A stretch of DNA of 64,000 nucleotides from Phycisphaerae bacterium (lineage in GTDB: Bacteria > Planctomycetota > Phycisphaerae > UBA1845), in assembly GCA_035356615.1 (NCBI GenBank), contig DAOQSN010000007.1:56192-120191 (forward strand), read 5' to 3'. A program made the position numbers and the translations under genes. Shown one piece after another: positions 4,233-61,503 of the stretch. The notes under the pieces were generated by a model that had not been told where the DNA came from, searched no databases, and saw nothing but the letters and a program-made list of their open reading frames with translations. How positions within the stretch are numbered: position 1 is the first letter of the stretch; every line of letters begins with the position of its first letter.

Positions 4233-5078
4233 ATGCTGACCAGGAAGCAGCAGGTTCAGAAAACGTGGCGGCGGGTCGCGTTGCGATTGCGCGCCCCGGC
4301 CGGGACTGCCGTGCCTCTCTTCATCCTCGGGGCACAGCGGTCGGGTACCAACATGCTTCTCGACGTGCTGCAGCCTTGCCCCTGGACCGAATGCTACAAC
4401 GAGACCGACGAGGAGGCGTTCGACAACTACGTCCTGCACCCGGCCGACGTCGTGCTGCGCCTCATCCGGCGCTCGCATGCGCGGGTGGTCGTGTTCAAGC
4501 CCATCTGCGACAGCCAGAACGCCCGCACTTTGCTCGACCTGCACCCGCGTGCCCGAGCGGTCTGGATCTACCGTCGCTGGCCGGACGTGGTCAACTCGGC
4601 CTTGCGCAACTTCACCGAGCACAACCGCTACCTGCACTACATGCTACACGAACCGCGGGTGGCGCGCTGGCGGCTACAGAACGTCGATGCCCAGTGCCTG
4701 CAACTGGTTGAACGCTTCTACAAACAGGGCGTTTCCGAGGCCTCCGCCCGGGCGCTCATCTGGTACCTGCGCGTGTACCAGTACTTCCAACAGGACTTGC
4801 CCTCAGACCCCCGGACCATGCTGCTCAGCTACGAACAGACTGTGCAGGAACCCCATGCGCACCTCCCCCGCCTCTTCGCCGCGTGCGGCTTGAGCTACGA
4901 GGAGCGTTTCGCCCGACCGCTGTTCACAACGTCAGTGGGCCGGCACGCCGCGCCGGAAATCGACCCCGAAATCGCCGCGCTCTGCGATGAAATGTACGCC
5001 CGGCTGGAAGCGGCGTGTGCCGCGTCGCACCCTCCAGGTTTGCCCGAAAGGGCTATGTCCTGCGTCGCAGTCCGTTAG
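4233..5078 (+). CDS. sulfotransferase family protein
   Basis: PAPS-binding loop-like motif LFILGAQRSGTNML near the N-terminus. ATG at 4233 (MLTRKQQ). The upstream part of the track ORF is Arg/Pro-rich junk. Confidence 0.65.
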   Translation: MLTRKQQVQKTWRRVALRLRAPAGTAVPLFILGAQRSGTNMLLDVLQPCPWTECYNETDEEAFDNYVLHPADVVLRLIRRSHARVVVFKPICDSQNARTLLDLHPRARAVWIYRRWPDVVNSALRNFTEHNRYLHYMLHEPRVARWRLQNVDAQCLQLVERFYKQGVSEASARALIWYLRVYQYFQQDLPSDPRTMLLSYEQTVQEPHAHLPRLFAACGLSYEERFARPLFTTSVGRHAAPEIDPEIAALCDEMYARLEAACAASHPPGLPERAMSCVAVR

Positions 5079-5550: not shown

Positions 5551-5611
5551 GGCACAACTCCCGTCACGTGCTGAAGTCTCCCCACGGCCCACTCCCGCAT
5601 CTCAAGCGGAC

Positions 5612-5757
5612 CCGGTACCAGGGCGACCAGCAGGGTGGCACGCCCAAGCCGAAGGCGCCGGCATGCTGCAGAAGACGGCCTTTCGCTCGCAGCGGAGCAT
5701 GGCGGCGCTACGCTTGGCCATGCCACCCGCTTCCGGCTGGTGCTTTCCCTATTGCGT
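5612..5757 (-). repeat. family-A ~150-nt quasi-palindromic intergenic element, copy 1 (inverted relative to the other copies)
   Basis: The core at 5634-5727 is the reverse complement of GGTGGCATGGCCAAGCGTAGCGCCGCCATGC...GCATGCCGGCGCCTTCGGCTTGGGCGTGCCACC. Confidence 0.85.
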
Positions 5758-5799
5758 AGAGCGATTCAGTGACACCCTTAAGCATTGGGGGCGCCACCG

Positions 5800-6267
5800 C
5801 TACGCCGGGACCCAGGCCAGGTCGAGAATCGTATGCGTCGGCCGCTTCGCATTGAACACGGCCTTGATCTTCATGCCGAACTTGGGCTTGCCTTCCTTCA
5901 GCCAACTCATCAGCTTGGTACAGACACCGTCGATTTCCACGCTGATCAGCGGCGTACCGGGCGGCAGCTTGAACAGCTCGCCCGGGTACGTCACTACCGA
6001 ATGCGTGTAGATGGTGCCCACCTGGGGTGCCTCGACCCACTCCATCGCATGCCAGCAATCGGGGCAGTCCGCCCGCGGCGGCAGCCACAGCCGCTTCTCC
6101 TTGCACTTGGGATTCGTGCAGCGCGCGGCCAGCAACTTCTGCTGCTGCAAGCCTTGGAAGAACTTGCCCCAGCCGCCGTAGCTGTGGATGTGGTACCAGG
6201 TCTTGGGGTTCTTCACCACCAGTGGTTCTTCGCTGAAAACTTCGAGTGCCGTTGTTGGCCAATCCAT
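5800..6267 (-). CDS. Zn-ribbon/OB-fold DUF35 protein (thiolase-associated)
   Basis: CTNPKCKEKRLWLPPRADCPDCWH zinc ribbon followed by an OB-like segment (GTIYTHSVV). AGGAAG Shine-Dalgarno upstream of the ATG at 6267. Confidence 0.85.
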   Translation of the reverse strand: MDWPTTALEVFSEEPLVVKNPKTWYHIHSYGGWGKFFQGLQQQKLLAARCTNPKCKEKRLWLPPRADCPDCWHAMEWVEAPQVGTIYTHSVVTYPGELFKLPPGTPLISVEIDGVCTKLMSWLKEGKPKFGMKIKAVFNAKRPTHTILDLAWVPA

Positions 6268-8987: not shown

Positions 8988-9067
8988 GACTGCGGCGGGC
9001 AGAGCACGCCCTACCATGCTGGCGCCCCGCAGCGGCTGGCAGAGGCCGCCCTACCATGCTGGCGCCC
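8988..9067. repeat. two tandem ~40-nt units; the proximal unit contains the last codons and stop of rmlC
   Basis: gccctaccatgctggcgccc occurs at 9008-9027 and 9048-9067. On the minus strand the units read GGGCGCCAGCATGGTAGGGCG..CTCTGCC..CCGC twice. Confidence 0.8.
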
Positions 9068-9805: not shown

Positions 9806-9835
9806 TCCACGTCGGCCGCGGGGGGCCGACGCTAC
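9806..9835 (+). repeat. family-C hairpin repeat TCCACGTCGGCCGCGGGGGGCCGACGCTAC
   Basis: Stem GTCGGCC/GGCCGAC with a G-rich loop. One of four copies in the window. Confidence 0.85.
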
Positions 9836-10422: not shown

Positions 10423-10958
10423 CAGCCAGATGGAAGCACGTGCCCACTATGCGGTTCAGCCGCGCGGAAACAGGTGGCGTCGAGGCCCGGGCGAGGTTCG
10501 CTCGCTCTCCGGGCGACATCAAGAGAAAGGGGAATGGTCCTACCCCCAGGGCCTGGAAGGCCCGGGCCACGCTCGTGCGACCTCCGGGCGAAGAGGACAC
10601 TCGCTGTTCGCCCGGAGGGCGCACGGTGGTTGCCAGGGACTTCGAGTCCCTGGAAGGCGCCAGGCTCCCCTCCACCCTCTTGCTGCCGCCCGGAGGGCGG
10701 ACGAAGGCTGCGGCGAACGTCGCCTGTGCGTCGAGTGCCTCGCGCGTGCTCGCTTGCCGCAGGCACACGAGTCTTCGTCGTCGGGTATACAAGCGCTGAC
10801 CGCAGGCGTGGCCGCCATCAGGGCAAATGTTCAACAACTAGTGATGAACGGTCGGCCCGCATTGGATACCGTGGAAACCGCTGCCTTTGAGGCCAGTTGC
10901 ATCGGCCGCGCGGGACGGAGGCTACTTCTTCAACAGGAAGCCAAGGGGTTCAACTTCG

Positions 10959-14363: not shown

Positions 14364-14387
14364 GCTGTCGCGGGGAAGCATGGCGCC
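14364..14387 (+). repeat. family-E repeat (GCTGTCGCGGGGAAGCATGGCGCC)
   Basis: Related copies at 28305-28337 and 59871-59902. Confidence 0.7.
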
Positions 14388-14453
14388 GGTGCTGCGGAAT
14401 GCGCTGAGTGCATGCAGACCCATGTCGCCTGCGTGACCCAACGCACACCGTAC

Positions 14454-14476
14454 CCCTCGCTTCCGCTCGGGCTCGA
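14454..14476 (-). repeat. family-D repeat (reverse complement of CGAGCCCGAGCGGAAGCGAGGGG)
   Basis: Related copies at 15235-15258 and 47399-47425. Confidence 0.75.
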
Positions 14477-14509
14477 ATGGTGGCGGCCGCAGTGGTGGGA
14501 GAGACGATC

Positions 14510-15142: not shown

Positions 15143-15234
15143 CAGTGGGCAGCCCGGTCCTCCGTAGATGTGCCAACGCTGTGTCGACAGCGGTGTGAGC
15201 CGGTAGGTTGGGTCCGTGACTTGTCGCACGACTG

Positions 15235-15258
15235 CCCCTCGCTCCCGCTCGGGCTCGG
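15235..15258 (-). repeat. family-D repeat (CCCCTCGCTCCCGCTCGGGCTCGG)
   Basis: Near-identical to the reverse complement of 47402-47425. Confidence 0.8.
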
Positions 15259-15292
15259 AACGTGGTGGTTGTCTGCAACTGACGGTGAAGCG

Positions 15293-19062: not shown

Positions 19063-22000
19063 ATGATTCGCCTGCACGCAGTCTGGAAGGATGCGTCTCT
19101 CCACATCTGGGGCGAGTTGGCGCCAGCAACGGGCGTTGGCCTGCAGGCGGTGGGCAACGAGCACGTCGGCACTCGGGGCACAGTCGGCCCGTTGCCAGAC
19201 TCCACGGCCGACGGGGCTGCTTCTGAAGCTGGTGCATCGGGTGGTCTCCACGTCGGCCGCGGCGGGCCGACGCTGCCTGCTCAACCGGCCACAACGGCCG
19301 CCGCCTCTGAGCAACTCCAAGTGCTGCCCGAGGACGAGCTGCGCGCCTGCCTGGGAGAACTGGCGGATGGACTGTTGGTATCCGGGGCGCGCGGAGGTTC
19401 GTTGCGTCTTACTTTGCCGCACCGGGCGGGGGTTCCTCTTTCCTCTTTCGCGCCGGAACTGTCGGCGGCCACGTCACTGGATCAACAGCAGCAGGCCGCA
19501 GAGGTCACGGGCCAACCGGTGACGGTGCCGGTGTTGCGGCTGTCGCCGGCGGATGCGATGGACTTCCTGACGGACTGGCCCACTCGGGCCGCCCACGGGA
19601 TGGAGGCAGGTGGATCATTGCGCTACTGGTCGTGCGTGGCCCGCCTGGTTCTCGAACTGCTGGCCCGGCAGCGCTTCGTCCCGGACCTGCACCATGTCCA
19701 CGGTAACAACTACCAGGCGTTCTGGCGCGTGGTGGTGGATGGCGCCGAGACGGCGGACCGCATCGGGCGGTTGATCACGGCCATGCCGCCGGTGTGCGTT
19801 GCGGGCCCCGGCACCGAACCGCCTCCACAAGTCCCGCTAGTGCTGGAGAACTTCCTTTGGACCACCGCGGACGCGGTGATCCGTCGCTGCCTGGAGGGCG
19901 ACGACCTGGCCCACGCGCTGCGCGACCGCGGCGGCGACGCTGCCTGCGGCAAGGTCGGCTGGCTGCGGGCCCTGCTGGGTCCGGAGTCGAGGCTGACGGG
20001 GCCGGCGTCCCAGTGCGCCGAGGTGTGGCAGAGCGTACGCGGCTGGCTGGCCGCACTGGAGCCGCCCGACCTGCTGCGGACGTGCAGAACGTGCTTCCGC
20101 CTGCACCCCTCGCCGGCGGAGGATGAGACGCCGACTGGCGCGATTGACGCTCGGGCTTGGCTGCTCACCGTCCATGTGCAGGCCACCGCGGACGAGGACG
20201 TCGTGATCGACGTGGCGGAACTCTGGCGCGAACAGCCGCGGCAGCCGGCGATCCTGCCGCGGCCGTTCGATGGGGCCCGGGCGTTCGTGCGGGAAGACCT
20301 CGCCCGGGCGGCCCGCCACTTCGAGCCGCTGGCGGCGGCTTTGGAACAGCCGCAACCGGGCGTGCTGCCCCTGACGCTGGAGGAAGCGTACCGCTTCCTG
20401 CGGGACGCGGCCGTTGTGCTCGAACTCGAGGGCTTCGGCGTCTGGCTGCCCGAGTGGTGGCGGCGGGAGCGCAGCCGGTTAGGTGTCCGGCTGGACGTCC
20501 GGCCGGCGGGCGAAGACGCGGCACCGGCGCAGCGGGTGTCGTTCGACGCGCTGGTCTCTTACGACTGGCGCCTGGCCCTGGGGGACGAAGACATCTCACT
20601 CGAGGAGATCACGGCCCTGGCGCAGCAGAAGGCGCCGCTGGTGCGGTGGCGTGGGCGGTGGACTGAGCTCCACCCGGCGGAAGTGGAGGCGGCCGCGGAG
20701 TTCGTACAACGCAGCCCGAGCGGGCGAATGACGCTGCGCGAAGCGTTGCAGCAGGCGTTTCTGCGTGATGAAACGGCGGCGGGGTTACGCGTCGTCGGCA
20801 TGCGTACCTCCGGCTGGGTGCATCAGCTTCTGCACGCGACGCAGACGGACCGGCACCTGGAGTCGGTGCCCGCGCCGGCGGGTTTCCACGGCCAACTGCG
20901 ATCCTATCAACTGACGGGCCTGGCCTGGCTGGCGTTTCTGGCCGAGCATGGCCTGGGCGCGTGCCTCGCGGACGACATGGGTCTGGGCAAGACGATCCAG
21001 ACCATTGCGTTGTGGCTGCATGAGCGGCACAGCGGGCAGCGTCCGGGGCCGACGTTGCTGGTGGTGCCGATGTCGCTGGTAGGCAATTGGCGGCGGGAAA
21101 TCAACCGGTTCGCGCCGTCGCTGCGCGTGCTCGTCCATCACGGTCTCGATCGTCTCAGCGGTGAGCAACTGCGTACACAAGCGACCGAGTACGACGTAGT
21201 GATCAGCACGTACGGCCTGATCCACCGCGACTTCGAGCACCTGGCGTCCGTCGCCTGGCACCGAGTGGTGCTGGACGAGGCGCAGAACATCAAGAACCCG
21301 GCGGCCAAGCAGGCCCAGGCGATCCGGGCCCTGCCCACCGGGCAACGCGTGGCGCTGACGGGCACGCCGCTGGAGAACCACCTGACGGAACTGTGGTCGA
21401 TCCTGGACTTCCTCAACCCGGGTTTTCTGGGCTCAGCCAGTGACTTTCGCCGACGCTTCGCCGTGCCCATCGAGCGGCATCATGACTCCGACCGGGCCGA
21501 CCGTCTGCGGCGCCTGATCCAGCCGTTCGTGCTCCGCCGGCTCAAGCGCGATCCCGACATCATGCAGGACCTGCCGGAGCGGTTGGAGATGAAGGTTTTC
21601 TGCAACCTGACGCAGGAGCAGGCGGCCCTCTACGAGGCGGTGGTCGCAGACATGCTGGGCCAGATCGAAGAGAGCGGCGGCATGCAGCGGCGCGGGCTCA
21701 TCCTGGCCGCCCTCGTGAAGCTCAAACAGATCTGCAACCATCCGGCCCACTTCCTGCGGGAACAAGTTCCCGGCGCGGCTGAGGCCCGGCACGGGCCCGT
21801 CCTGCATCAGCGCAGCGGCAAGTGCGAACGTTTGCGCGAGATGATCGAGGAGGTCGTCGCGGAAGGTGATGCCGCCTTGGTGTTCACCCAGTTTCGCCAG
21901 ATGGGGGCACTGCTGCAACACTACTTAGGTGAAGCATTCGATCGGGAGGTCCTCTTCCTGCACGGGGGCACCTCGGCCGGGCAACGCGATGCGCTCGTGC

Positions 22001-28226: not shown

Positions 28227-28363
28227 ACGTGTTTAGCGTGGGTGCCATGCCCTCACCCGCCGCAGGCGGGGGTGGGCATGGGGTCGGGCCTAAGAACATG
28301 CTTACCCGCGACCGCTGTCGCGGGAAAGCATGGCACCCCGGCGCCCGTCTGCGCTAAACACGT
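28227..28363. repeat. 137-bp segment bounded by inverted repeats ACGTGTTTAGCG / CGCTAAACACGT
   Basis: Contains a 37-nt hairpin (28245-28281, CCATGCCCTCACCCGCC GCA GGCGGGGGTGGGCATGG) and a family-E copy (28305-28337). The 14-nt CTGCGCTAAACACG recurs at 28413-28426, overlapping the ddl stop. Confidence 0.7.
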
Positions 28364-31687: not shown

Positions 31688-31781
31688 GGACGGATCCTTC
31701 CTGCTAATCGTGAGGCTTCGGCCCTCCGGGCTTTGACCGCTCCTTTGTACCCCGGGCGCCGCGGATAGTATATCGGGAAAC

Positions 31782-32948
31782 TCAATAACTCGCCTGCACG
31801 GATTCGCACGACACGCCCCGCGCCAGCATCAGCACACGGTCGGCGATCCTCCCGGCCGCGTCCGCACATCCCATTCGCCGCGCCGCCCCTGTCAGCGTTT
31901 CCAGCATCTGATCGTCAGTCATCAACTCGTCCAGCACGGCACCGAGCGCCGGACCGTTCTGCTCCACGTGCGTCGTATCCGCCACGATCCGCGCCGCCCC
32001 CCGCCGCTCCAGGCACCGGGCGTTGGCAAGCTGATGCATATCACGGTGAAACGGATACGGCATCAGCACTGACGCCCTCCCCACGGCCGTGATCTCCGCC
32101 AGCGTCGAGGCTCCAGCCCGCGACAGCACCAAGTCCGCGGCCGCCAGCGCCGCCGGCATCGCTTCCGTGTACGACAGCACCCGCGCGGGCAGCCGCCGCC
32201 CCTGGTAGGCGGCCGCCACCCGTTCGTAGTCCAGCTTCCCAGTCAGGTGCAAGACCTGCCAACCCCCGTGCTGCTCCAGGCGGTCGAGGTTCGCCACCAA
32301 CGCGTCATTCAGCGTGCGCGCGCCCTGCGAAGCACCCGTGGCCAGCAGCGTCCGACGTGCCGGATCGAGGTCAAAGTGCCGGACACCGGCCGCTCGGTCC
32401 GGCGTCCCGAACCCCGGCCGGATCGCGCAGCCCAACGCCTCCAGCCGCGTGCCGCGGGGGAAGTGTCGAATACTGTCTTCCCACTGGACAAAGACGGCAT
32501 CCATCCGTCGGGCGAGAAACCGGTTGGCCCGGCCGGGGATTGCGTCGGGGTTGAGAAGGGCTGCCGGAATGCCCGCCCGCAGCGCCTCCAGAACCGCAGG
32601 AACCGAGGCCAACCCCCCCGTTCCCAGTACCAACATCGGCCGCTGCCGCTCAAACCACGCCCTCGCCTGCCGGCGCGCCCGTGACAGGCCTCGCAGGATG
32701 CCCGGCCAACGCCATGGCGCAGGGTGCAATGGCGGAAGCGATTGACGCACCAGCGTACACGCCTCGCGGCCACCAAGAATCTGCTCGTCAATCGCCCGGT
32801 CCGTCGCGAAGAAGACGAACCGCAACTGCGCCAGTCGCTCACGCAGCACTTCCGCGACCGCAAGCGCGGGGTACAGGTGTCCACCCGTGCCGCCGCCCGC
32901 CACGGCAACTACCGGATCCCGCACGTCCGTCGCAGTGCCCGCCGACAT
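31782..32948 (-). CDS. murG: undecaprenyldiphospho-muramoylpentapeptide beta-N-acetylglucosaminyltransferase
   Basis: AGGGTGGHLYPALAVAE motif. The ATG at 32948 is preferred over the GTG at 32999. Confidence 0.9.
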   Translation of the reverse strand: MSAGTATDVRDPVVAVAGGGTGGHLYPALAVAEVLRERLAQLRFVFFATDRAIDEQILGGREACTLVRQSLPPLHPAPWRWPGILRGLSRARRQARAWFERQRPMLVLGTGGLASVPAVLEALRAGIPAALLNPDAIPGRANRFLARRMDAVFVQWEDSIRHFPRGTRLEALGCAIRPGFGTPDRAAGVRHFDLDPARRTLLATGASQGARTLNDALVANLDRLEQHGGWQVLHLTGKLDYERVAAAYQGRRLPARVLSYTEAMPAALAAADLVLSRAGASTLAEITAVGRASVLMPYPFHRDMHQLANARCLERRGAARIVADTTHVEQNGPALGAVLDELMTDDQMLETLTGAARRMGCADAAGRIADRVLMLARGVSCESVQASY

Positions 32949-33048
32949 CGTCTTCCCGTCCGTGCTGATTCGCGGCACGTTCGTGCGCGGCACAGCCACC
33001 TAGGCGGTACCGCAACAGCCTCACGAGCGTGGGACCACGCACACTCGG

Positions 33049-34311
33049 TTAGTCATCCGCCGTGCGCGTGCTCACCACCGGGTCGCGAGCACGCGCCGCC
33101 AACCCCGCCAGGAGTCCGAACGCGACCGCGAACGTCAGCACTCCACTCCCCCCGGCCGACACCAATGGCAGCGAAATCCCCTTCGTGGGCGCCGCCGCAC
33201 TAACGACCGCGATGTGCATGGCCGCTTGCAGCCCAATCGTCACCGTAACACCGAACGCCAGCAGCCGCTCAAACCGAGACCGAGCGTGTTGCACCACGCG
33301 CATGCCGAAGTAAACAAGCGCCGCATACAGCCCGACAACCGCCAAGGCCCCTACGAGCCCCGTTTCTTCACAAATTACAGAATAAATGAAATCCGTGCGG
33401 CTCTCTGGAACGTAGCCGTACTTCTGCACGCCGGCCCCGAGCCCCATCCCTGCCACACCGCCGGACGCAATCGTCACCAACGACTGCGTGGCGTGGTACG
33501 CAGCGCCTTGGGGATCTGCCTCCGGGTTGGCAAAGGCCGTCAGCCGCGCCACCCGGTACGGCGCCATCTTCACGAGGCCGATCGCGCCGGCCATGCCCAG
33601 CAGAGCCAGCACGGCCAGATAGCGCCAGCGACAGCCCGCCACCAGCAGCATCATTGCCCCAACCGTCCCGATCAGGGCTGCGGTGCCGAAGTCCTCGATC
33701 CCGACCAAGGCCACACTCGCCCCGATGAACAGCGAACCGGGGACGAAGCCCGACCAGAAGCCGCGCGGATCATGGCGTCGCCGCCCAAACCAGCCTGCCA
33801 AGGCACCCGCGAGCGCCAGCTTCGCCAGCTCGGAGGGCTGAAAACGAAACCCCCAGGAGGCCGGGCCCACGGGCAGCCACCGCTGCGACCCATGCCGCGC
33901 ATGCCCGATGCCCGGCACCAGCGTGATCACCAGCACGGCCGCCACCAATGCGAACACCACGAAGGGGAGCACCCGGCGTGTGGGTCGCCACGAGACTACC
34001 GCGGGCGTGAGCCTGGCCGTCGCTACCATGAGCCCCAGCCCGAACAGAGCGAAGATCACCTGCCGCCCGAACGGCGTGAGCCACCAGCGCGGCCCGAACA
34101 GCGAGTGATCGAGCGACGCGCTCGTCGAGGCAACCATGACGACACCGATCGCCATGAGCGCGCAGGCGATGAGCATGATGGGGCTCGACGTGCCGGCCCC
34201 GATCGCCGCGGCCGCGCTTCGCGCCGAGGCCGCACCGGAGGCAGCGCCGACCACAGCCCCATCCTCATCCGCGTCCATCGCCCGATCACCGCCACGGACC
34301 AGTTGCGTCAT
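33049..34311 (-). CDS. ftsW: SEDS-family peptidoglycan glycosyltransferase FtsW/RodA
   Basis: Polytopic with a SEDS pattern (SELAKLAL, PESRTDFIYSVICEE, GISLPLVSAGGS). The track N-terminus (34312-34434) reads through the family-A repeat, so the start is taken at ATG 34311. Confidence 0.85.
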   Translation of the reverse strand: MTQLVRGGDRAMDADEDGAVVGAASGAASARSAAAAIGAGTSSPIMLIACALMAIGVVMVASTSASLDHSLFGPRWWLTPFGRQVIFALFGLGLMVATARLTPAVVSWRPTRRVLPFVVFALVAAVLVITLVPGIGHARHGSQRWLPVGPASWGFRFQPSELAKLALAGALAGWFGRRRHDPRGFWSGFVPGSLFIGASVALVGIEDFGTAALIGTVGAMMLLVAGCRWRYLAVLALLGMAGAIGLVKMAPYRVARLTAFANPEADPQGAAYHATQSLVTIASGGVAGMGLGAGVQKYGYVPESRTDFIYSVICEETGLVGALAVVGLYAALVYFGMRVVQHARSRFERLLAFGVTVTIGLQAAMHIAVVSAAAPTKGISLPLVSAGGSGVLTFAVAFGLLAGLAARARDPVVSTRTADD

Positions 34312-34337
34312 CCTATGCCCCCCACCAAGTAGCCCCA

Positions 34338-34483
34338 CGCAACGGGGAGACCGACAGTTGAGACAGAGTGGCATGGCCAAGCGCAGCGCCGCCATGCTCT
34401 CCCCTGGGCGAGCGGGTGGCTGCTCGCACGGCATGCCGGCGCCTTCGGCTTGGGCATGCCACCCCGCTGGTTTCCCATCTGCG
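34338..34483 (+). repeat. family-A ~150-nt quasi-palindromic element, copy 2 (mraY|ftsW gap)
   Basis: GTGGCATGGCCAAGCGCAGCGCCGCCATGCTC...GCATGCCGGCGCCTTCGGCTTGGGCATGCCACC with outer arms CGCAACGGGGAGACC / GGTTTCCCATCTGCG. Confidence 0.9.
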
Positions 34484-34497
34484 CGGTCCCATAGAGC

Positions 34498-35640
34498 TCA
34501 ACGCAGCTTGATGGTCGCCAGGGCGCACCCGGCGAACAGCGCCGCCAGCAGCCAGAACCGCACCACCGTTTGAGGCTCACTCCAGCCGCCCAGGTGGAAA
34601 TGATGATGCAGCGGCGAGCAGCGGAAGATGCGTTTGCCGCCGCTGAACTTGTAGTATCCCACCTGGATGATGACCGAGATCGCCTCCACGACAAACACCC
34701 CGCCGGCAATAAGTAGCATCAACTCCTGCCGGGTGACGATCGCGACGAACCCGATAAGCCCGCCCAGCGGCAAGGAACCCGTGTCCCCCATGAACACCCG
34801 CGCCGGGTGGCAGTTGTACCACAGGAACCCGAGGCACGAACCCAGTATCGCCCCGCAGAGGATCACCAGCTCGCCCCCGCGCGGCACGTACGGAAAGAGC
34901 AGTTTGTGGGCAAGCCCCTCGGTGCCCCCGATGTGCGCCAGGATGGCGAACACCAGCGCGCACAAGGCCACGCACCCGGACGCCAGCCCGTCCATCCCGT
35001 CGGTCAGATTGACGGCGTTGGACGACGCGGTCATCACGATGACCGTCACGGCCATGAACGCCAGCGCTCCGAGTTGGAGCCCCGCCTTGTAGAACGGTAC
35101 CGACAACACGCGGTACGCCGGCACCGTGCCCGCCTCCACCAGCGGACTGAGCTGGATGTAGTTGCTCTGGCCGTGGCGGAAGATGTAGTAACCCAGCACC
35201 ACGCCGAGGCCCATCTGGAAGAGCAGCTTCTCGTAGCCCTTCAGGCCGACGCGGGATCCCGTTCGGCGCCCGGCCGTCAGCTTCAGCCAGTCATCCACCA
35301 GCCCCAGGGCCCCGAGCCACACCAGGCATACCAAGCTCATGCGGATGTAGAAGTTGCTCAGGTCGGCAAGCAGCAGGACGGCCAGCCCGATGGCCCCGAG
35401 GATCAGCGCCCCGCCCATCGTCGGGACGTTGGTCTTGTCACGCGTGAGCTCGTTGAGCGTGGCGTGGTCGAACTCCGGCCGGTCGCCGACCTTGTAGCGA
35501 ATGAGCTGGCGGATGACGCGCGGGGCCACAACCAACACGAGCAGGAAGCAGAACAGCGCCGCGGCCGTCGCGCGAAACAGGGGATTCTCGTAGGCGTAAT
35601 GCCGTCCGGCGAACAGCTCTTGCAGGAGATGATAGAGCAC
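34498..35640 (-). CDS. mraY: phospho-N-acetylmuramoyl-pentapeptide transferase
   Basis: MraY motifs (NLTDGMDGLA, FMGDTGSL, HHHF). GTG at 35640 gives MLYHLLQELF, with GGGAGA 11 nt upstream. Confidence 0.9.
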   Translation of the reverse strand: MLYHLLQELFAGRHYAYENPLFRATAAALFCFLLVLVVAPRVIRQLIRYKVGDRPEFDHATLNELTRDKTNVPTMGGALILGAIGLAVLLLADLSNFYIRMSLVCLVWLGALGLVDDWLKLTAGRRTGSRVGLKGYEKLLFQMGLGVVLGYYIFRHGQSNYIQLSPLVEAGTVPAYRVLSVPFYKAGLQLGALAFMAVTVIVMTASSNAVNLTDGMDGLASGCVALCALVFAILAHIGGTEGLAHKLLFPYVPRGGELVILCGAILGSCLGFLWYNCHPARVFMGDTGSLPLGGLIGFVAIVTRQELMLLIAGGVFVVEAISVIIQVGYYKFSGGKRIFRCSPLHHHFHLGGWSEPQTVVRFWLLAALFAGCALATIKLR

Positions 35641-35753
35641 GCGGCATGATCTCCCGAACAAGCACCCGCTACAGCGTCGCCGGTACACCCCCCGTCCATG
35701 GCGGGTGGAAGTCGGGGGCTAACTGGCCCGAAGAATCGGAGTTCCCGCGCTCG

Positions 35754-35786
35754 CCCTCACCCTGCCCTCTCCCGGGGGGAGAGGGG
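35754..35786 (-). repeat. family-B repeat, inverted orientation (murF|mraY gap)
   Basis: CCCTCACCCTGCCCTCTCCCGGGGGGAGAGGGG. Confidence 0.8.
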
Positions 35787-35811
35787 TGCCAGCGGGTGAC
35801 GCCAGCGAAGC

Positions 35812-37218
35812 TCAGGCGACCGCGGCCGGGGCGGGAATGTGGGTCTCCAGCCGCCGCACGAGGCGATCCAGCTCCATGCCCCGTGAGCCCTTGATCCACA
35901 CCACGTGCTCCTCGCCCATCAACGTCGCCAGGGCCGCCAACGCACGCTCCTGATCTTCACAGACAAGGACCCGCGTGGACCCCGTTTCCCCGTGCAGGGA
36001 GCGCGCCGCCTGCACCGAAACGGGTCCCACCACGATGAGGGTCTCGATTCCCGCAGCGGCGACGGCCTCCACCACCCGACGGTGGTACTGGCCGGCGGTC
36101 GGCCCCAGTTCGAGCATATCGCCCATGACGAACACTCGCCGCCCGGCCGGGGCACGCTGCAAGGCCGCCACCGCGGCCAGCATGCTCGGCGGGTTGGCGT
36201 TGTAGGTGTCGTCCACGACCGTAACCCGGCCGACCGTGAAGCGGCGGGTTCGCCCGGCCGGCGGGGAGAACGTGCGGAGCCGCTCGACGATCTCCTCCGG
36301 CGCCAGGCCGAACCACCGCCCGACGGCAAACGCGGCGGCCGCGTTGGCGGCATGGTGCGGACCGGGCATCGGCAGCCGCACGGTATAGCGTCCATCCAGG
36401 ATGAACGTCGTCTCGTCGATGCTGCCGGCTACGTCTGTAATCCTCAGGCGTGCCTCCGGCGCCAGGCCGACCGTCACCAGACGCCCGTTGAACGTCCAGG
36501 GCAGGTGCGGGCGGATCTCGCGTCGGTCAATGTTAATCACGGCGAAGCCGTGGTCGCGTACGTGGGTCAGCAGGGAAGCCTTCTCGGCCGCGATCGCGCG
36601 GATGTCGCCCAAGCCCTCCAGGTGGGCCTCGCCAATCGACGTAATGACACCGACGTGCGGCTTGACCATGGCCGCCAGCGACGCCACCTCGCCGGGGGCG
36701 TTCGTCCCGATCTCGACGATCAGGTAGCGGTCGTCCGCCCCCGCGGAGAGGAGCGTCAGGGGGACGCCGAGGTGGTTGTTGAAGCTGCGCGGAGCGCTAC
36801 GGCCCCTGAGCGTGGGCGCCAGGATGTGGTCGATCATGCGCTTGGTGGTGGTCTTGCCGTTGCTACCGGTGACGGCGATCAGCACGGTCGAGGCCGGCAT
36901 GACGCTCCGCCGGTAGAAGACGGCAAGCTGCCCCAGAGCGGCCACGGCGTCGGGCACCACGAGCCGGGGCACCAACCGTCCCGGCGCTTCGACGGGCCCG
37001 CTGCCGCGCTCGACGAGACAGGCGACAGCCCCGCGCCGCGCCGCCTCCTCGACGAACTGGTGCCCGTCGAACGTCTTGCCCGACAGGGCCACAAACAAAT
37101 CGCCCGACTCGACCACCCGGGAGTCCGTAACCACGCGCTGGACCTGCACCGGTTCGATGCCGGCCGGCAGGGGTGCCCCCATGGCCACCGCCGCCTCATC
37201 GAGCAACATGGGAATCAT
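35812..37218 (-). CDS. murF: UDP-N-acetylmuramoyl-tripeptide--D-alanyl-D-alanine ligase
   Basis: Mur-ligase motifs (TGSNGKTTTK). The ATG at 37218 overlaps the murE stop as ATGA. Confidence 0.9.
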   Translation of the reverse strand: MIPMLLDEAAVAMGAPLPAGIEPVQVQRVVTDSRVVESGDLFVALSGKTFDGHQFVEEAARRGAVACLVERGSGPVEAPGRLVPRLVVPDAVAALGQLAVFYRRSVMPASTVLIAVTGSNGKTTTKRMIDHILAPTLRGRSAPRSFNNHLGVPLTLLSAGADDRYLIVEIGTNAPGEVASLAAMVKPHVGVITSIGEAHLEGLGDIRAIAAEKASLLTHVRDHGFAVINIDRREIRPHLPWTFNGRLVTVGLAPEARLRITDVAGSIDETTFILDGRYTVRLPMPGPHHAANAAAAFAVGRWFGLAPEEIVERLRTFSPPAGRTRRFTVGRVTVVDDTYNANPPSMLAAVAALQRAPAGRRVFVMGDMLELGPTAGQYHRRVVEAVAAAGIETLIVVGPVSVQAARSLHGETGSTRVLVCEDQERALAALATLMGEEHVVWIKGSRGMELDRLVRRLETHIPAPAAVA

Positions 37219-38726
37219 GCGACATGCTCCGCCATCCTTGACGCCGCCAGCCACGCCCGGGCTGTTTCCCGATCGTCGAAGTGTAGCACCTGATCTCCGA
37301 CGAGTTGATAGTCCTCATGCCCCTTCCCCGCAATCAGCACGGTGTCGCCGGGCCCGGCCTCGGTCAACGCCCGTTCAATGGCCTCTCGCCGGTCCGGGCA
37401 AACCTCAACCCGGCACCGCGGCTTCGCGCTGAAGCCCAGCAGAATCTCGTCGATGATCGCCTCGGGCCGCTCGGAACGCGGGTTGTCATTGGTCACCACG
37501 GCCAGGTCCGCGTTGCGCTCGACCACGGCCGCCATGCGCGGGCGTTTGGTGCGATCGCGGTCCCCGCCACAGCCGAAGACGCAGATCAGCCGACCCGGGG
37601 TGAGCGGTCGCAGCACGCTCAGCACGTGCTCCAGGGCGTCGTCCGTGTGGGCGTAGTCCACCAGCACCGTGAACGGACAGCCCGGCGGCTCGACGCGTTC
37701 GAGGCGCCCGGGTACGCCGCCCAGCCCCTCCAACCCGGTGCGAATCGCCGTCGGGGGGATGCCGAGTGCCGCCGCGCCTGCGGCCGCCGCCAGCGCGTTG
37801 TGCACATTGTGCCGCCCGATGAGGGGCAGGCCTACCTCCAACGCGGGGCCTGCGCCCTCGACTATGAATCGACTACCACGGCGCGAAAGCTCCAATCCGC
37901 GTGCGCACACCTCGACCGTCGCGTGATCGATCCCGTAACGCAGTGTGCGCCGCGCCGCACAGCCGGTCAACATCCTCTCCCACGCGGGGTCGTCGGCATT
38001 CACGACCGCGACGGCCTCGGCATCCAACCCGGCAAACAAACGCCGCTTGGCCGCCAGGTACCGGTCCATCGTCTGGTGATAGTCCAAATGGTCACCGGTA
38101 AGGTTCGTGAACACGCCGGCCGCGAAGGCCAGCCCGTCGCAGCGGTGTTGATCGAGGGCATGGGAGGACACCTCCAGCACGGCGTCCGTCGCTCCGGCAT
38201 CGGCCGCCTCCGCGAGCAACCGGCACACCTGTATGGAACCCGGCGTGGTGAGCGGTGCCTTGCAGCGGCGGCTGATGAGGTCATACTCGACCGTCCCCAG
38301 GAGAGCGGGGCGTCGCCCGGCCGCCTGGAGGATCGAGCGCAGCAGCCACGCGGTGGTCGTCTTGCCGTTCGTACCCGTGATGCCCACCAGCCGCAGGACA
38401 CGGGGACCGCCGGTCCCCACGCCGTAGTACGTCGCCGCCACTCTTGCCAGCGCCACGCGCACGTCGGGCACCTGCAAGGCGAGCACCCCCGCCGGCACGG
38501 GCACGTTGCGTTCGGTCAGCACCGCGGTTGCCCCGGCCGCCACCGCCGCCTCGATGAACCGGGCGCCGTCGGCCCGGTTGCCCGGCACGGCCGCGAACAT
38601 CGCCCCGGGGATGACTTCGCGCGAGTCGTCGGTCAGCACGGTAACGGGGACATCAGGGCCCCAACAGCCTTCGACCGTCGTGACGCCGGCGCGTCGAAGA
38701 AGCTCGCGTGCCGAAAAAGGGGACAT
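37215..38726 (-). CDS. murE: UDP-N-acetylmuramoyl-L-alanyl-D-glutamate--2,6-diaminopimelate ligase
   Basis: GITGTNGKTTT and the DAP-specific DNPR motif (TNDNPRSE). ATG at 38726; the alternative start is GTG at 38753. Confidence 0.9.
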   Translation of the reverse strand: MSPFSARELLRRAGVTTVEGCWGPDVPVTVLTDDSREVIPGAMFAAVPGNRADGARFIEAAVAAGATAVLTERNVPVPAGVLALQVPDVRVALARVAATYYGVGTGGPRVLRLVGITGTNGKTTTAWLLRSILQAAGRRPALLGTVEYDLISRRCKAPLTTPGSIQVCRLLAEAADAGATDAVLEVSSHALDQHRCDGLAFAAGVFTNLTGDHLDYHQTMDRYLAAKRRLFAGLDAEAVAVVNADDPAWERMLTGCAARRTLRYGIDHATVEVCARGLELSRRGSRFIVEGAGPALEVGLPLIGRHNVHNALAAAAGAAALGIPPTAIRTGLEGLGGVPGRLERVEPPGCPFTVLVDYAHTDDALEHVLSVLRPLTPGRLICVFGCGGDRDRTKRPRMAAVVERNADLAVVTNDNPRSERPEAIIDEILLGFSAKPRCRVEVCPDRREAIERALTEAGPGDTVLIAGKGHEDYQLVGDQVLHFDDRETARAWLAASRMAEHVA

Positions 38727-38839
38727 CACTGATTTGCCTGCTGTGGGTGCCACGGTCCTGGGTTACCGCCTCCGTTTCACGGGGACCTCCATTTTTCGCC
38801 GGGGGTAAACGGGAAAACCAGTGATGCTCCCTTTCCCTT

Positions 38840-46915: not shown

Positions 46916-48277
46916 ATGGAGTTTCTGTCCACCTGGGCTGTCCAGACCTGGGGCGTCCTGGTGCAGGCCGGGCCGTGGTTGCTCGGTGGGTTCATCCTGG
47001 CCGGGTTCATCCACGCCTACCTGCCGATGGGCAAGGTCGCCCGGCACCTCGGGGCACCCAGGCTGGCCGGCGTGCTCAAGGCGTCGCTGATCGGCGTGCC
47101 GCTGCCGCTGTGCTCGTGCAGCGTCATCCCGGTGGCGGCCGCCCTGCGCAAACAGGGGGCGAGTCGCGGGGCCACCGCGGCCTTCCTGGTCAGCACGCCC
47201 GAAACCGGCGTGGACTCCATCTCGATCTCCTACGCCCTGCTGGGACCGTTCCTGGCGGTGCTGCGTCCGATCGCCGCATTCGTGACGGCCATGGTGGCCG
47301 GCTGCACGATCAACTGGTTCACGCGTGATCCGAGCCCAAGCGGGAGAATAGCGAATGGCGAAGAGCGAATAGCGAATGCAGAGGCGGGACGCTTGGCTGA
47401 TCCGAGCCCGAGCGGGAGCGAGGGGCACGACGGGTGCACACATGCGGTCATTGACTCGCCCCGGCCGGTGCGGCCTACCATCGCGCCCCAGCACAGTTGC
47501 TGCTCGCGTCCAGTCGCCGGAATCCCGACAATGCCCGTAGACACCAGCGCCTGCGGGGAATCGGGCACGGCATCGCGCCAGTCGCCGTCGCATTCCGAGC
47601 CGGCTCTGACCTGCTGCGGGCACACGACGTTGCCCGCTGCCACACCTGCCGTTTATCCCGACACCCATCGCGGTGGTTCCGAGCGCTGGCATCGTGTCGT
47701 ACGCCGCCTGTCCGATTCGCGCATCGCGCGGGCCCTGCGCTATGGGCTCAGCGACATGTTCGCCGATCTGGGGCACTGGCTATTGCTGGGATTCGCGCTC
47801 GCGGGACTGATCTCGGCCCTGGTGCCGCCGGGTCTCCTCGAGCGTTACATTGGTGAGGGACCGCTCGCGTACCTCGTTACTCTCGCGGTTGCGCTGCCGC
47901 TCTATGTCTGTGCCACGTCATCGACACCGGTTGCGGCCGCTCTCATCGCCAAGGGCCTGAGTCCCGGCGCTGCGGTCGTGTTTCTGCTGGCGGGGCCGGC
48001 CAGCAACGCTGCGACGATGGTCATTGTGGCGCGCATGCTCGGGCGACGCGCCCTGGCGCTCTACCTGGCGAGCATTGTAATCACCGCCGTGCTGTTCGGC
48101 GTTGCCACCGATGCCCTGCTGGGCACCGCGGTCCTTCCGACCGTCACTACGCTTCATCACCACCACGCCGAAGCTGGCGGCGGCGCAGCCATCGCTGCCG
48201 TCGTTCTCATCGGACTCATGTTCACCGGTGTTGTCCGGCGAATGAGCCGTAGCGTCGCCCCGCTACGGGCGACATAG
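46916..48277 (+). CDS. DUF318/SO_0444-type permease (putative metal transporter) with an enlarged Cys/His-containing central loop
   Basis: GVPLPLCSCSVIP and STPETGVDS motifs. The central ~120 aa carry HSCCS and TCCGH and contain repeat DNA. Confidence 0.75.
   Translation: MEFLSTWAVQTWGVLVQAGPWLLGGFILAGFIHAYLPMGKVARHLGAPRLAGVLKASLIGVPLPLCSCSVIPVAAALRKQGASRGATAAFLVSTPETGVDSISISYALLGPFLAVLRPIAAFVTAMVAGCTINWFTRDPSPSGRIANGEERIANAEAGRLADPSPSGSEGHDGCTHAVIDSPRPVRPTIAPQHSCCSRPVAGIPTMPVDTSACGESGTASRQSPSHSEPALTCCGHTTLPAATPAVYPDTHRGGSERWHRVVRRLSDSRIARALRYGLSDMFADLGHWLLLGFALAGLISALVPPGLLERYIGEGPLAYLVTLAVALPLYVCATSSTPVAAALIAKGLSPGAAVVFLLAGPASNAATMVIVARMLGRRALALYLASIVITAVLFGVATDALLGTAVLPTVTTLHHHHAEAGGGAAIAAVVLIGLMFTGVVRRMSRSVAPLRAT
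47328..47425 (+). repeat. composite repeat inside the permease CDS: GATCCGAGCCC(A/G)AGCGGGAG direct repeats flanking a GAATAGCGAATG duplication
   Basis: Direct repeats at 47328-47347 and 47399-47418, with GAATAGCGAATG at about 47346 and about 47367. The 3' copy extends into the family-D motif ...GCGAGGGG. Confidence 0.8.
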
Positions 48278-48300: not shown

Positions 48301-48330
48301 CCTACATCGGCCACGGGGGGCCGACGCTAC
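48301..48330 (+). repeat. family-C hairpin repeat
   Basis: CCTACATCGGCCACGGGGGGCCGACGCTAC. Confidence 0.8.
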
Positions 48331-51964: not shown

Positions 51965-51991
51965 ATGCCCTTCAACCTGTAAACGCTCCCA

Positions 51992-52145
51992 CGCATCGAA
52001 AAACGGACTGACGGGAAGGGGTGGCATGGCCAAGCGCAGCGCCGCCATGCCTGGCTCCCGGGACAGCCGCCACGTGCAGCCGCCGCATGCCGGCGCCCGC
52101 CACCGGCGGGCTTGGGCATGCCACCCTCCTGGTTTCCCGTTCGCG
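51992..52145 (+). repeat. family-A ~150-nt quasi-palindromic element, copy 3 (PrpD-like|CitDE gap)
   Basis: GGTGGCATGGCCAAGCGCAGCGCCGCCATGC...GCATGCCGGCGCC...GGCTTGGGCATGCCACC. Confidence 0.9.
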
Positions 52146-52229
52146 CGGCCCCCTCCAACACCACCTGACACAAGCCCCTCCGCTCCGGCCCGAGGGCAGA
52201 GTGAAGGGACATACCGCCCCCGGCGGCCG

Positions 52230-55595: not shown

Positions 55596-55643
55596 GTCTA
55601 CACTCCGCCCCCCGCACCCTCGCGCCCCACTGAATAGCTCCAG

Positions 55644-55796
55644 GCAATGGGAAAACCGACAGACGGAACGGGGTGGCATGGCCAAGTCCCGGCGCGCCGG
55701 GACCATGCTCTCCCCCGGTCGAACATGTGCCTGCTGCCAACGCATGCCGGCGCCTTCGGCTTGGGCATGCCACCCGCCTCCTCGTTTCCCGTTTGC
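55644..55796 (+). repeat. family-A ~150-nt quasi-palindromic element, copy 4 (dehydrogenase|hydro-lyase gap)
   Basis: GGTGGCATGGCCAAG...CCATGCTC...GCATGCCGGCGCCTTCGGCTTGGGCATGCCACC with outer arms GCAATGGGAAAAC / GTTTCCCGTTTGC. Confidence 0.9.
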
Positions 55797-55868
55797 GTGG
55801 TCCTAAACCCCGTCGTCGATCCGCAGTACCGCCCGGCAACGATCAAGGTTCCACCGCGGCCGCGTTCG

Positions 55869-61123: not shown

Positions 61124-61153
61124 GTAGCGCCGGCCCCCCGCGGCCGACGTGGA
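61124..61153 (-). repeat. family-C hairpin repeat, inverted orientation
   Basis: GTAGCGCCGGCCCCCCGCGGCCGACGTGGA. Confidence 0.8.
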
Positions 61154-61416: not shown

Positions 61417-61503
61417 CGGAGCGGGAGGGATTCGAACCCTCGGTACGGTTTCCCGCACACCGCATTTCCAGTGCGGTCCCTTCAGCCACTCGGACACCGC
61501 TCC
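61417..61503 (-). tRNA. tRNA-Ser (anticodon GGA)
   Basis: GGAGCGG-TG-TCCG...CCGCA-CTGGAAA-TGCGG, a long variable arm, then GAGGG-TTCGAAT-CCCTC-CCGCTCC-G. The cloverleaf was checked by hand. CCA is not encoded. Confidence 0.9.

Follow-up and report, generated by a model that had tools for sequence, protein, structure and literature searches.

A new family of RAYT-associated REP doublets (REPINs) in Phycisphaerae (Planctomycetota)

The closest described system to the repeats reported here is the REPIN/RAYT (TnpA-REP) pair of Pseudomonas fluorescens (P. fluorescens) and E. coli (Nunvar 2010; Bertels and Rainey 2011, PMC3116915; Ton-Hoang 2012). Earlier work, on Planctomycetes among others, has also recorded REPs with a GTAG or GTGG foot, "double-foot" REPs and multiple RAYTs (PMC3733652, PMC6006769); Rhodopirellula baltica and Opitutus terrae are among the hosts of the GTAG/GTGG families of Di Nocera et al. 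2013 (PMC3733652). Phycisphaera is mentioned in neither of these papers, the term being absent from PMC3733652. The arm sequence of the present repeats occurs in no paper of the literature searched, and nothing in that literature links Phycisphaerae with REPs or MITEs.

Within the 64-kb stretch of DNA analysed here (the window), four intergenic repeats belong to a RAYT-associated family of REP doublets (REPINs) that had not been described before, and do not constitute a new regulatory RNA. We consider it about 85% probable that each element is a REPIN of a Phycisphaerae (Planctomycetota) REP family, most likely made and spread by a RAYT. A first-pass annotation of the window had reported four quasi-palindromic copies, each in a gap between minus-strand genes. 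These were recovered at the same coordinates as four related quasi-palindromes of ~160 nt, with a mean column identity of 76% over ~190 columns (alignment with 20-nt flanks). Their positions stand, but the elements are slightly longer than had been given once the outer repeats are counted. The copies, together with a fifth, diverged element, are as follows, with scores from a covariance model (R1) that was built from 46 distinct copies (alignment A2):

5606-5764, minus strand: copy 1, full element (core 5631-5730; R1, 73 bits), in the gap between an ACT-domain gene and a ChsH2/DUF35-type gene
34330-34493, plus strand: copy 2, full element (core 34364-34466; R1, 69.3 bits), in the gap between mraY and ftsW, with TA dinucleotides at both ends
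51980-52153, plus strand: copy 3, full element (core 52017-52128; R1, 81.8 bits), in the gap between an HpcH/CitE-ACP gene and a PrpD gene
55635-55805, plus strand: copy 4, full element, i.e. the core plus outer inverted repeats TAGCTCCAGGCAATGGGAAAACC / GGTTTCCCGTTTGCGTGGTCCTA
55669-55777, plus strand: core of copy 4, an inverted REP doublet (R1, 46.8 bits, E = 8e-7)
28238-28340, minus strand: distant relative, a REP doublet of another sub-family (R1, 32.5 bits, E = 8e-4; foot motif count)

The gaps that hold the four copies measure 207-270 nt, and Pfam confirmed the gene context, with 8/8 flanking genes on the minus strand (ACT / ChsH2/DUF35-type, FtsW / MraY, HpcH/CitE-ACP / PrpD, and aconitase / isocitrate/isopropylmalate dehydrogenase, Iso_dh). 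The 16-mer arm GGTGGCATGGCCAAGC, with up to three mismatches allowed, has exactly eight matches in the 64 kb, corresponding to two arms in each of four copies; the chance expectation is 1.4, and eight matches were reached in 0/100 shuffles. Alignment of the copies showed invariant left and right arms, a variable centre and a second outer inverted pair, which is real, as had been claimed. The arm sequences first quoted are right for copies 1-3, but not for copy 4, in which the left-arm loop is swapped for the hairpin TCCCGGCGCGCCGGGA. In copy 3, the left arm reads GGGTGGCATGGCCAAGCGCAGCGCCGCCATGC and the right arm bears a small hairpin, P3 (CCGCCACCGGCGG). In copy 4, the left arm (~55671-55709) is followed by a variable spacer and then by the right arm (~55742-55775). 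This core has a DNA folding energy of -36 kcal/mol (z = -4.1), and the copy is flanked by an aconitase-family gene (start ~55598, minus strand) and the Iso_dh gene (stop 55869, minus strand). Each copy can indeed form a long imperfect hairpin, whichever strand is folded (z = -2 to -5 relative to shuffled sequences). The diverged doublet at 28238-28340 (GGGTGCCATGC...GCATGGCACCC) carries its own outer inverted repeat (GTGTTTAGCG / CGCTAAACAC); it sits in a gap between two minus-strand ORFs, and a related half lies at 14364-14405.

The architecture of the core is that of an inverted REP doublet, i.e. two inverted REP-like units with conserved arms, separated by a spacer that varies in sequence and length. 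Each REP unit spans ~32 nt. On its 5' side is a conserved foot, GGGTGG, whose GTGG is a variation on the classical GTAG; a stem of 7-8 bp (GGCATGGC / GCCATGCC) comes next and closes a loop that has a 3-bp apical stem of its own. Arms almost always occur in pairs, 40-110 nt apart, and hardly ever singly. The right arm equals the left arm with one stem pair flipped (G-C to C-G), and in many species it carries the extra small hairpin P3 on its 3' side. Read as one hairpin, the core forms a three-way junction, in which P1 (GGGTGGCATGgCCAAGC / GCTTGGgCATGCCACCC) is followed by a GCA bulge, replaced by a hairpin in copy 4, L020 and L022, and P2 (GCGCCGcCATG / CATGcCGGCGC) closes a spacer of 10-45 nt.

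In this long hairpin, P1 and P2 each contain one invariant mismatch, G opposite G and C opposite C, respectively. Inside the left arm, the mismatched G of P1 finds its partner in the mismatched C of P2, and inside the right arm their C and G counterparts likewise pair. The column pair 13-49 is G-C, and the column pair 95-126 C-G, in 46/46 sequences each, with columns 49 and 95 having been left free by the search pattern; across the 46 sequences, the arm-local pairs are 98.9-100% paired. This arm-local Watson-Crick pairing of the conserved mismatches indicates that each arm is a self-contained footed stem-loop. Each arm alone folds into the foot GGGT(GG), a stem of 8 bp, an internal loop and, at the apex, a 3-bp mini-stem; the stem is short, and compared with shuffled sequences the folding energy of a single arm does not stand out (z = -1.1 to -2.0). 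Little variation is seen in P1 and P2, in part because the search pattern fixed them, so the covariation evidence comes mainly from P3, the one flipped pair and comparison across sub-families. P3 shows double, compensated changes in 4/4 stem pairs, and the REPs that flank the RAYT gene of L142 have the same stem pair flipped with compensation (CATGCCC...GGGCATG versus CATGGCC...GCCATG).

The family is multi-copy and mainly extragenic, as the scan for further copies proposed in the first-pass annotation established. The simple search pattern for the REP family is GGGTGGCATGGCCAAGCGMAGCGCCGCCATG, and the two-arm pattern was found at at least 49 loci (one genome per species), all in Planctomycetota/Phycisphaerae MAGs among the matches listed, with many loci per MAG. 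Model R1 detected ~60 copies in 384 kb, from about a dozen MAGs, and also the diverged element of the window. These copies are overwhelmingly extragenic, with only three possibly lying inside ORFs (on crude gene calls), and 4/4 of those in the window lie in gaps. The window matches contig Ga0209096_1000094 of JGI metagenome 3300025859. Its MraY protein has an exact counterpart (100% identity) on JGI metagenome contigs, and the nearest named relatives of this MraY, 74-78% identical, come from Phycisphaerae/Planctomycetota MAGs. Copies in the JBARRC MAG are recent (97% identical). In L026, positions 5686-6110 hold a tandem array of three copies with a period of ~195 nt, the third of which stops after the left arm. 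L038 carries a single-hairpin REP with the same foot, GGTGGCATGGGCAAGC-GTCA-GCTTGCCCGTG (4395-4434 and 4820-4853), adjoining a full doublet and, judging by eye, probably a tRNA gene. Among 2.9 million viral contigs, there was one single-arm match, indicating no phage association.

The gap between mraY and ftsW differs among relatives in a way that suggests gain or loss of such elements. It measures 219 nt with the element in the window, in agreement with the identical JGI contig. In L051 (4848-5048; MraY 80% identical), the orthologous gap of 200 nt holds a different doublet family (GGGTGGCAC..., GGGTGGCACCGACAAAC...GTGCGTGCCACCC), indicating that this gap has been colonised by different REP families. 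In three loci with MraY 77% identical, two of them near-identical, the gap is empty and only 30-49 nt long, these loci being too diverged for the junction to be aligned. The surrounding dcw cluster (~31700-38800) has ftsW directly after mraY, with no murD between them, and the same order occurs in relatives (L050, L052-L054); on the called contigs, the order is Mur ligase, Mur ligase, MraY, FtsW, MurG, Mur ligase. Integron attC sites were considered because they, too, combine co-oriented genes with imperfect palindromes; they were rejected, as no GTTRRRY core sites were seen on direct reading and the flanking genes are housekeeping genes (dcw cluster, TCA-type enzymes).

The association with RAYT comes from related Planctomycetota contigs, in which the left-arm sequence GGGTGGCATGGCCAAGCG(C/A)AGCGCCGCCATG flanks RAYT genes. 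In L120, the exact left arm of the element lies 14 nt upstream of the RAYT start, on one side only, and this short contig ends soon past the stop codon. Contigs encoding six of the closest homologues of the L120 protein (L136-L138 and L140-L142) extend the pattern: in L136, L137, L138, L140 and L141, GGGTGGCATGG(C/T)CAAGCG(C/A)AGCGCCGCCATG occurs on both sides of the RAYT gene, inverted, and in L142 the gene is flanked by the compensated variant REP (CATGCCC...GGGCATG), with full doublets directly downstream and elsewhere on the contig. The left arm of window copy 3 is 32/32 identical to the REP upstream of the L140 RAYT gene. The encoded proteins (196-210 aa) display the HUH (PEHVH), WQ and YIHxNP (YIHANP) motifs, and 4/4 proteins tested scored 92-103 bits against NCBIfam NF047646 (REP-associated tyrosine transposase, equivalog; cut-off 80); their matches to Pfam Y1_Tnp are weak to significant, and E. 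coli RayT detects the clade by phmmer.

Among 80 related RAYT loci from metagenomes, 35 had their flanks inspected, and the gene is typically bracketed by inverted footed palindromes. The REPs at these 35 loci have a related foot (GTGTGCCAC..., GGGTGGCATGGACAAAC... or GGGTGGCA...), with one REP type per clade. Such RAYT loci with their bracketing REPs are REPtrons in the sense of the literature (PMC3733652, PMC6006769). In L120 and L137, the RAYT gene lies immediately downstream of a gene for an SDF-family symporter, and in L140 and L141 immediately downstream of one of succinyl-CoA-ligase type (CoA_binding/Ligase_CoA). These conserved positions suggest vertical inheritance within sub-lineages, consistent with the long-term vertical persistence proposed for such systems.

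Searches with E. coli RayT and the L137 RAYT (phmmer) found no RAYT in the 64-kb window or beside the ~60 core-bearing copies, except in L017 with another REP type. This L017 gene, the only one detected by E. coli RayT among the ORFs of the sequence set, is flanked by inverted GTGCCACTGCTCTTGAGCAGTGG hairpins, and its homologues are abundant in Phycisphaerales. Since the window lacks a RAYT, the link to the window genome rests on identity with the REPs that flank RAYTs in other contigs, and we infer from this that a RAYT of the same clade is probably encoded elsewhere in that genome. The first-pass annotation had suggested a search for a cognate transposase with the same termini, and had held that identity with the termini of a known IS element would make the repeat an ordinary MITE; the search returned RAYT genes bracketed by the left-arm REP, so that the arms in effect coincide with the termini of a known kind of transposase gene. 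Its suggestion of a MITE surviving only in such gaps was close to the truth, in that these are repeats with long hairpins in intergenic positions, but they are of the REPIN/RAYT kind. Similarly, its remark that the sequence belonged to no named REP, ERIC or BIME family holds as regards a name, an Rfam entry or a paper with the sequence, but the elements are REPs/REPINs by architecture and RAYT association.

Under the REPIN reading, a single-copy RAYT, an HUH/Y1 enzyme related to IS200 TnpA, would make and spread the doublets. By analogy with E. coli TnpA-REP, its substrate would be single-stranded DNA, where it would bind the hairpin and foot of the folded REP and may then cleave and rejoin the DNA, moving or copying the doublet into other intergenic sites. 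If the hairpin also affects host operons, for example by stabilising mRNA as E. coli REPs do, this would be a side effect. To our knowledge, RAYT-driven REPIN mobilisation has never been directly shown in vivo in any organism.

The core is commonly enclosed by outer inverted repeats of ~17-26 nt, with TA at both ends in window copies 2 and 4 and in most copies elsewhere, usually inside CTAG. In L009, the closest relative, as in the window genome, the enclosing inverted repeat is 23 nt long and ends in TA. The outer repeats read TAGCTCC... / ...GGTCCTA in the window and CTAGTGCTC... / ...GAGCACTAG in other MAGs. These termini are what a classical TIR-type MITE would show, i.e. a ~160-190-nt unit bounded by the outer repeats, with the REP doublet as passenger DNA, moved by an IS630/Tc1-type DDE transposase that targets CTAG and duplicates TA; within one MAG, moreover, the shared sequence reaches 25-45 nt past the core and stops at the ends of the outer repeats. 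Between species, however, conservation is much higher in the core than in the outer repeats, whereas TIRs bound by a transposase would be expected to show the opposite, and several copies and whole MAGs share only the core (the JBKJYI and JAKSDK MAGs, and L028, L041, L044 and L046). In ~850 kb, outer repeats nearly always adjoined a core; a search for ones without a nearby core, or enclosing something else, turned up only L034, with no empty shells, and neither a transposase gene nor a longer element with outer-repeat termini was found. The TA ends are a candidate target-site duplication, the empty sites available for comparison (in relatives with MraY 77% identical) being too dissimilar to align at the junction. 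The transposase gene associated with the family is flanked by the core arm rather than by the outer repeat. We therefore regard a TIR-type MITE as quite unlikely.

The exception in L034 (3957-4090) is a CTAGTGC... / ...GCACTAG shell around a REP doublet of a different family (GTGGCACAGCGG... / GGCCCAGCCG...), here behaving as a separate module, as a TIR-type MITE would allow. That the outer TA-ended repeat is in general a separate, reusable shell enclosing REP doublets of different families is an unlikely proposition. REP doublets would then insert preferentially into the apex of a pre-existing palindromic MITE, or a TIR-type MITE would have repeatedly captured REPINs; either way, the result would be a two-layer mobile element, movable by two unrelated enzymes, an HUH tyrosine transposase and a DDE transposase.

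The placement of the copies inside co-oriented gene strings had led to the proposal of an RNA-level role (processing, stability or attenuation), and a cis-acting structured RNA in polycistronic mRNAs, selected as a processing site, stabiliser or attenuator, would account for it: 4/4 window copies would be transcribed, and the hairpin is stable on either strand. REPs of E. coli stabilise upstream mRNA. The orientation of the copies does not support such a role. The core is asymmetric, yet among the ~60 copies from about a dozen MAGs, those between co-oriented genes are divided into 12 in the same and 12 in the opposite orientation relative to the genes, while nine copies lie in convergent and four in divergent gaps; the flanking genes were called by a GC1/GC2/GC3 frame signature, which reproduced the Pfam-confirmed strands in the window. 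Within the window, where all genes run one way, copy 1 is inverted relative to the other three. The co-oriented placement thus reflects the gene layout of the window and not a property of the element. Against a cis-acting RNA, furthermore, the stem has no following T run, the flanking genes are functionally unrelated, and the orthologous mraY/ftsW gap is empty in relatives.

Rfam 15 likewise offers nothing for an RNA reading, returning at E <= 10 only chance-level miRNA and lncRNA matches for a window copy and a copy from another MAG; at the gathering threshold, the window yielded only a tRNA. This tRNA gene lies at 61417-61503 on the minus strand. Within the scope of Rfam 15, this excludes known repeat-associated RNAs such as twister, hammerhead and HEARO. 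Taken together, a cis-acting RNA is highly improbable. An independently transcribed multi-copy small RNA gene or ribozyme would fit the conserved three-way-junction core, the compensatory P3 changes, the optional extra hairpins and the independence from the orientation of neighbouring genes, but it is barely credible, given that no ribozyme or sRNA family of Rfam 15 matches, that arm-local DNA hairpins explain the conserved mismatches, that single arms flank a transposase gene, and that neither a promoter nor a terminator is evident.

The window also contains other repeats. A second, classical GTAG-footed REP family, GTAGCG(T/C)CGGCC-CCCCGC-GGCCGACG, has five matches in the window versus zero expected:

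9810-9835, minus strand: GTAG-footed REP
19251-19276, minus strand: GTAG-footed REP
48305-48330, minus strand: GTAG-footed REP
61124-61149, plus strand: GTAG-footed REP
10900-10925, minus strand: GTAG-footed REP, weaker match

In L073, the same GTAG-footed sequence lies upstream of a region with a RAYT. A third short repeat, TGCCCCTCGCTCCCGCTCGGGCTCGGA, is present in three copies (14449-14478, 15233-15259 and 47401-47427), one pair of which is 27/27 complementary. In addition, positions 10546-10653 hold a 50-nt inverted repeat, 80% complementary with arms 8 nt apart, which is unrelated to the REPIN family, and positions 8992-9067 hold two tandem 36-nt direct repeats, 92% identical and 40 nt start-to-start (GCGGC(G/T)GGCAGAG..CGCCCTACCATGCTGGCGCCC).

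The REPIN family bears on the annotation and assembly of these genomes. As had been noticed from the ORF track, the repeats create false N-terminal extensions of ORFs in annotation; for instance, the ORF at 33049-34434 is 461 aa long, compared with 409 aa for FtsW on the identical JGI contig. They probably also break metagenome assemblies, in which many contigs with RAYT and REPs are 1-2 kb long and end at repeats. The covariance model or the simple arm pattern would allow the repeats to be masked in Phycisphaerae genomes. More broadly, the family extends the range of REPIN-RAYT pairs, which are well documented, to a class of Planctomycetota that is little studied and mostly uncultured. It involves no new mechanism, and is a clear example of a doublet whose arms are two different REP variants with compensated pairing.

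Compared with known systems, the family shares with REPIN/RAYT the inverted doublet of short footed palindromes around a variable spacer, the long hairpin, the many extragenic copies, the GT[A/G]G-type foot, and the single RAYT-family transposase gene flanked by the same REPs in inverted orientation. It differs from the REPIN/RAYT systems of P. fluorescens and E. coli in its Planctomycetota, Phycisphaerae host and its GGGTGG foot. Unlike in those systems, the arms are non-identical REP variants (a flipped stem pair and the extra P3), the REP loop is large and sometimes swapped for a hairpin, and the doublet usually lies inside a further TA-ended inverted repeat, often within CTAG, a trait that has not been described for REPINs and recalls a TIR-type MITE.

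E. coli BIMEs are mosaics of REPs with fixed inter-REP motifs, and their binding partners are gyrase, IHF and Pol I. As in BIMEs (REP types Y, Z1 and Z2), two REP variants alternate in orientation within the unit, further conserved motifs surround them, and clusters or tandem arrays occur (e.g. in L026), but there is no sequence similarity. The double-foot and GTGG REPs (Quentin et al. 2018, PMC6006769; PMC3733652) have three traits in common with the family: a GT[AG]G foot on the 5' side whose reverse complement stands at the 3' end, a range that takes in the PVC superphylum, and the presence of several REP families and RAYTs in one genome. Like the present repeats, Correia/NEMIS, ERIC and RUP elements measure 100-190 nt, lie inside operons, have terminal inverted repeats and a TA at either end, and give transcripts with a long hairpin. 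However, those elements are without REP-type footed arms or a RAYT link, whereas in the window family it is the inner core, and not the termini, that is conserved.
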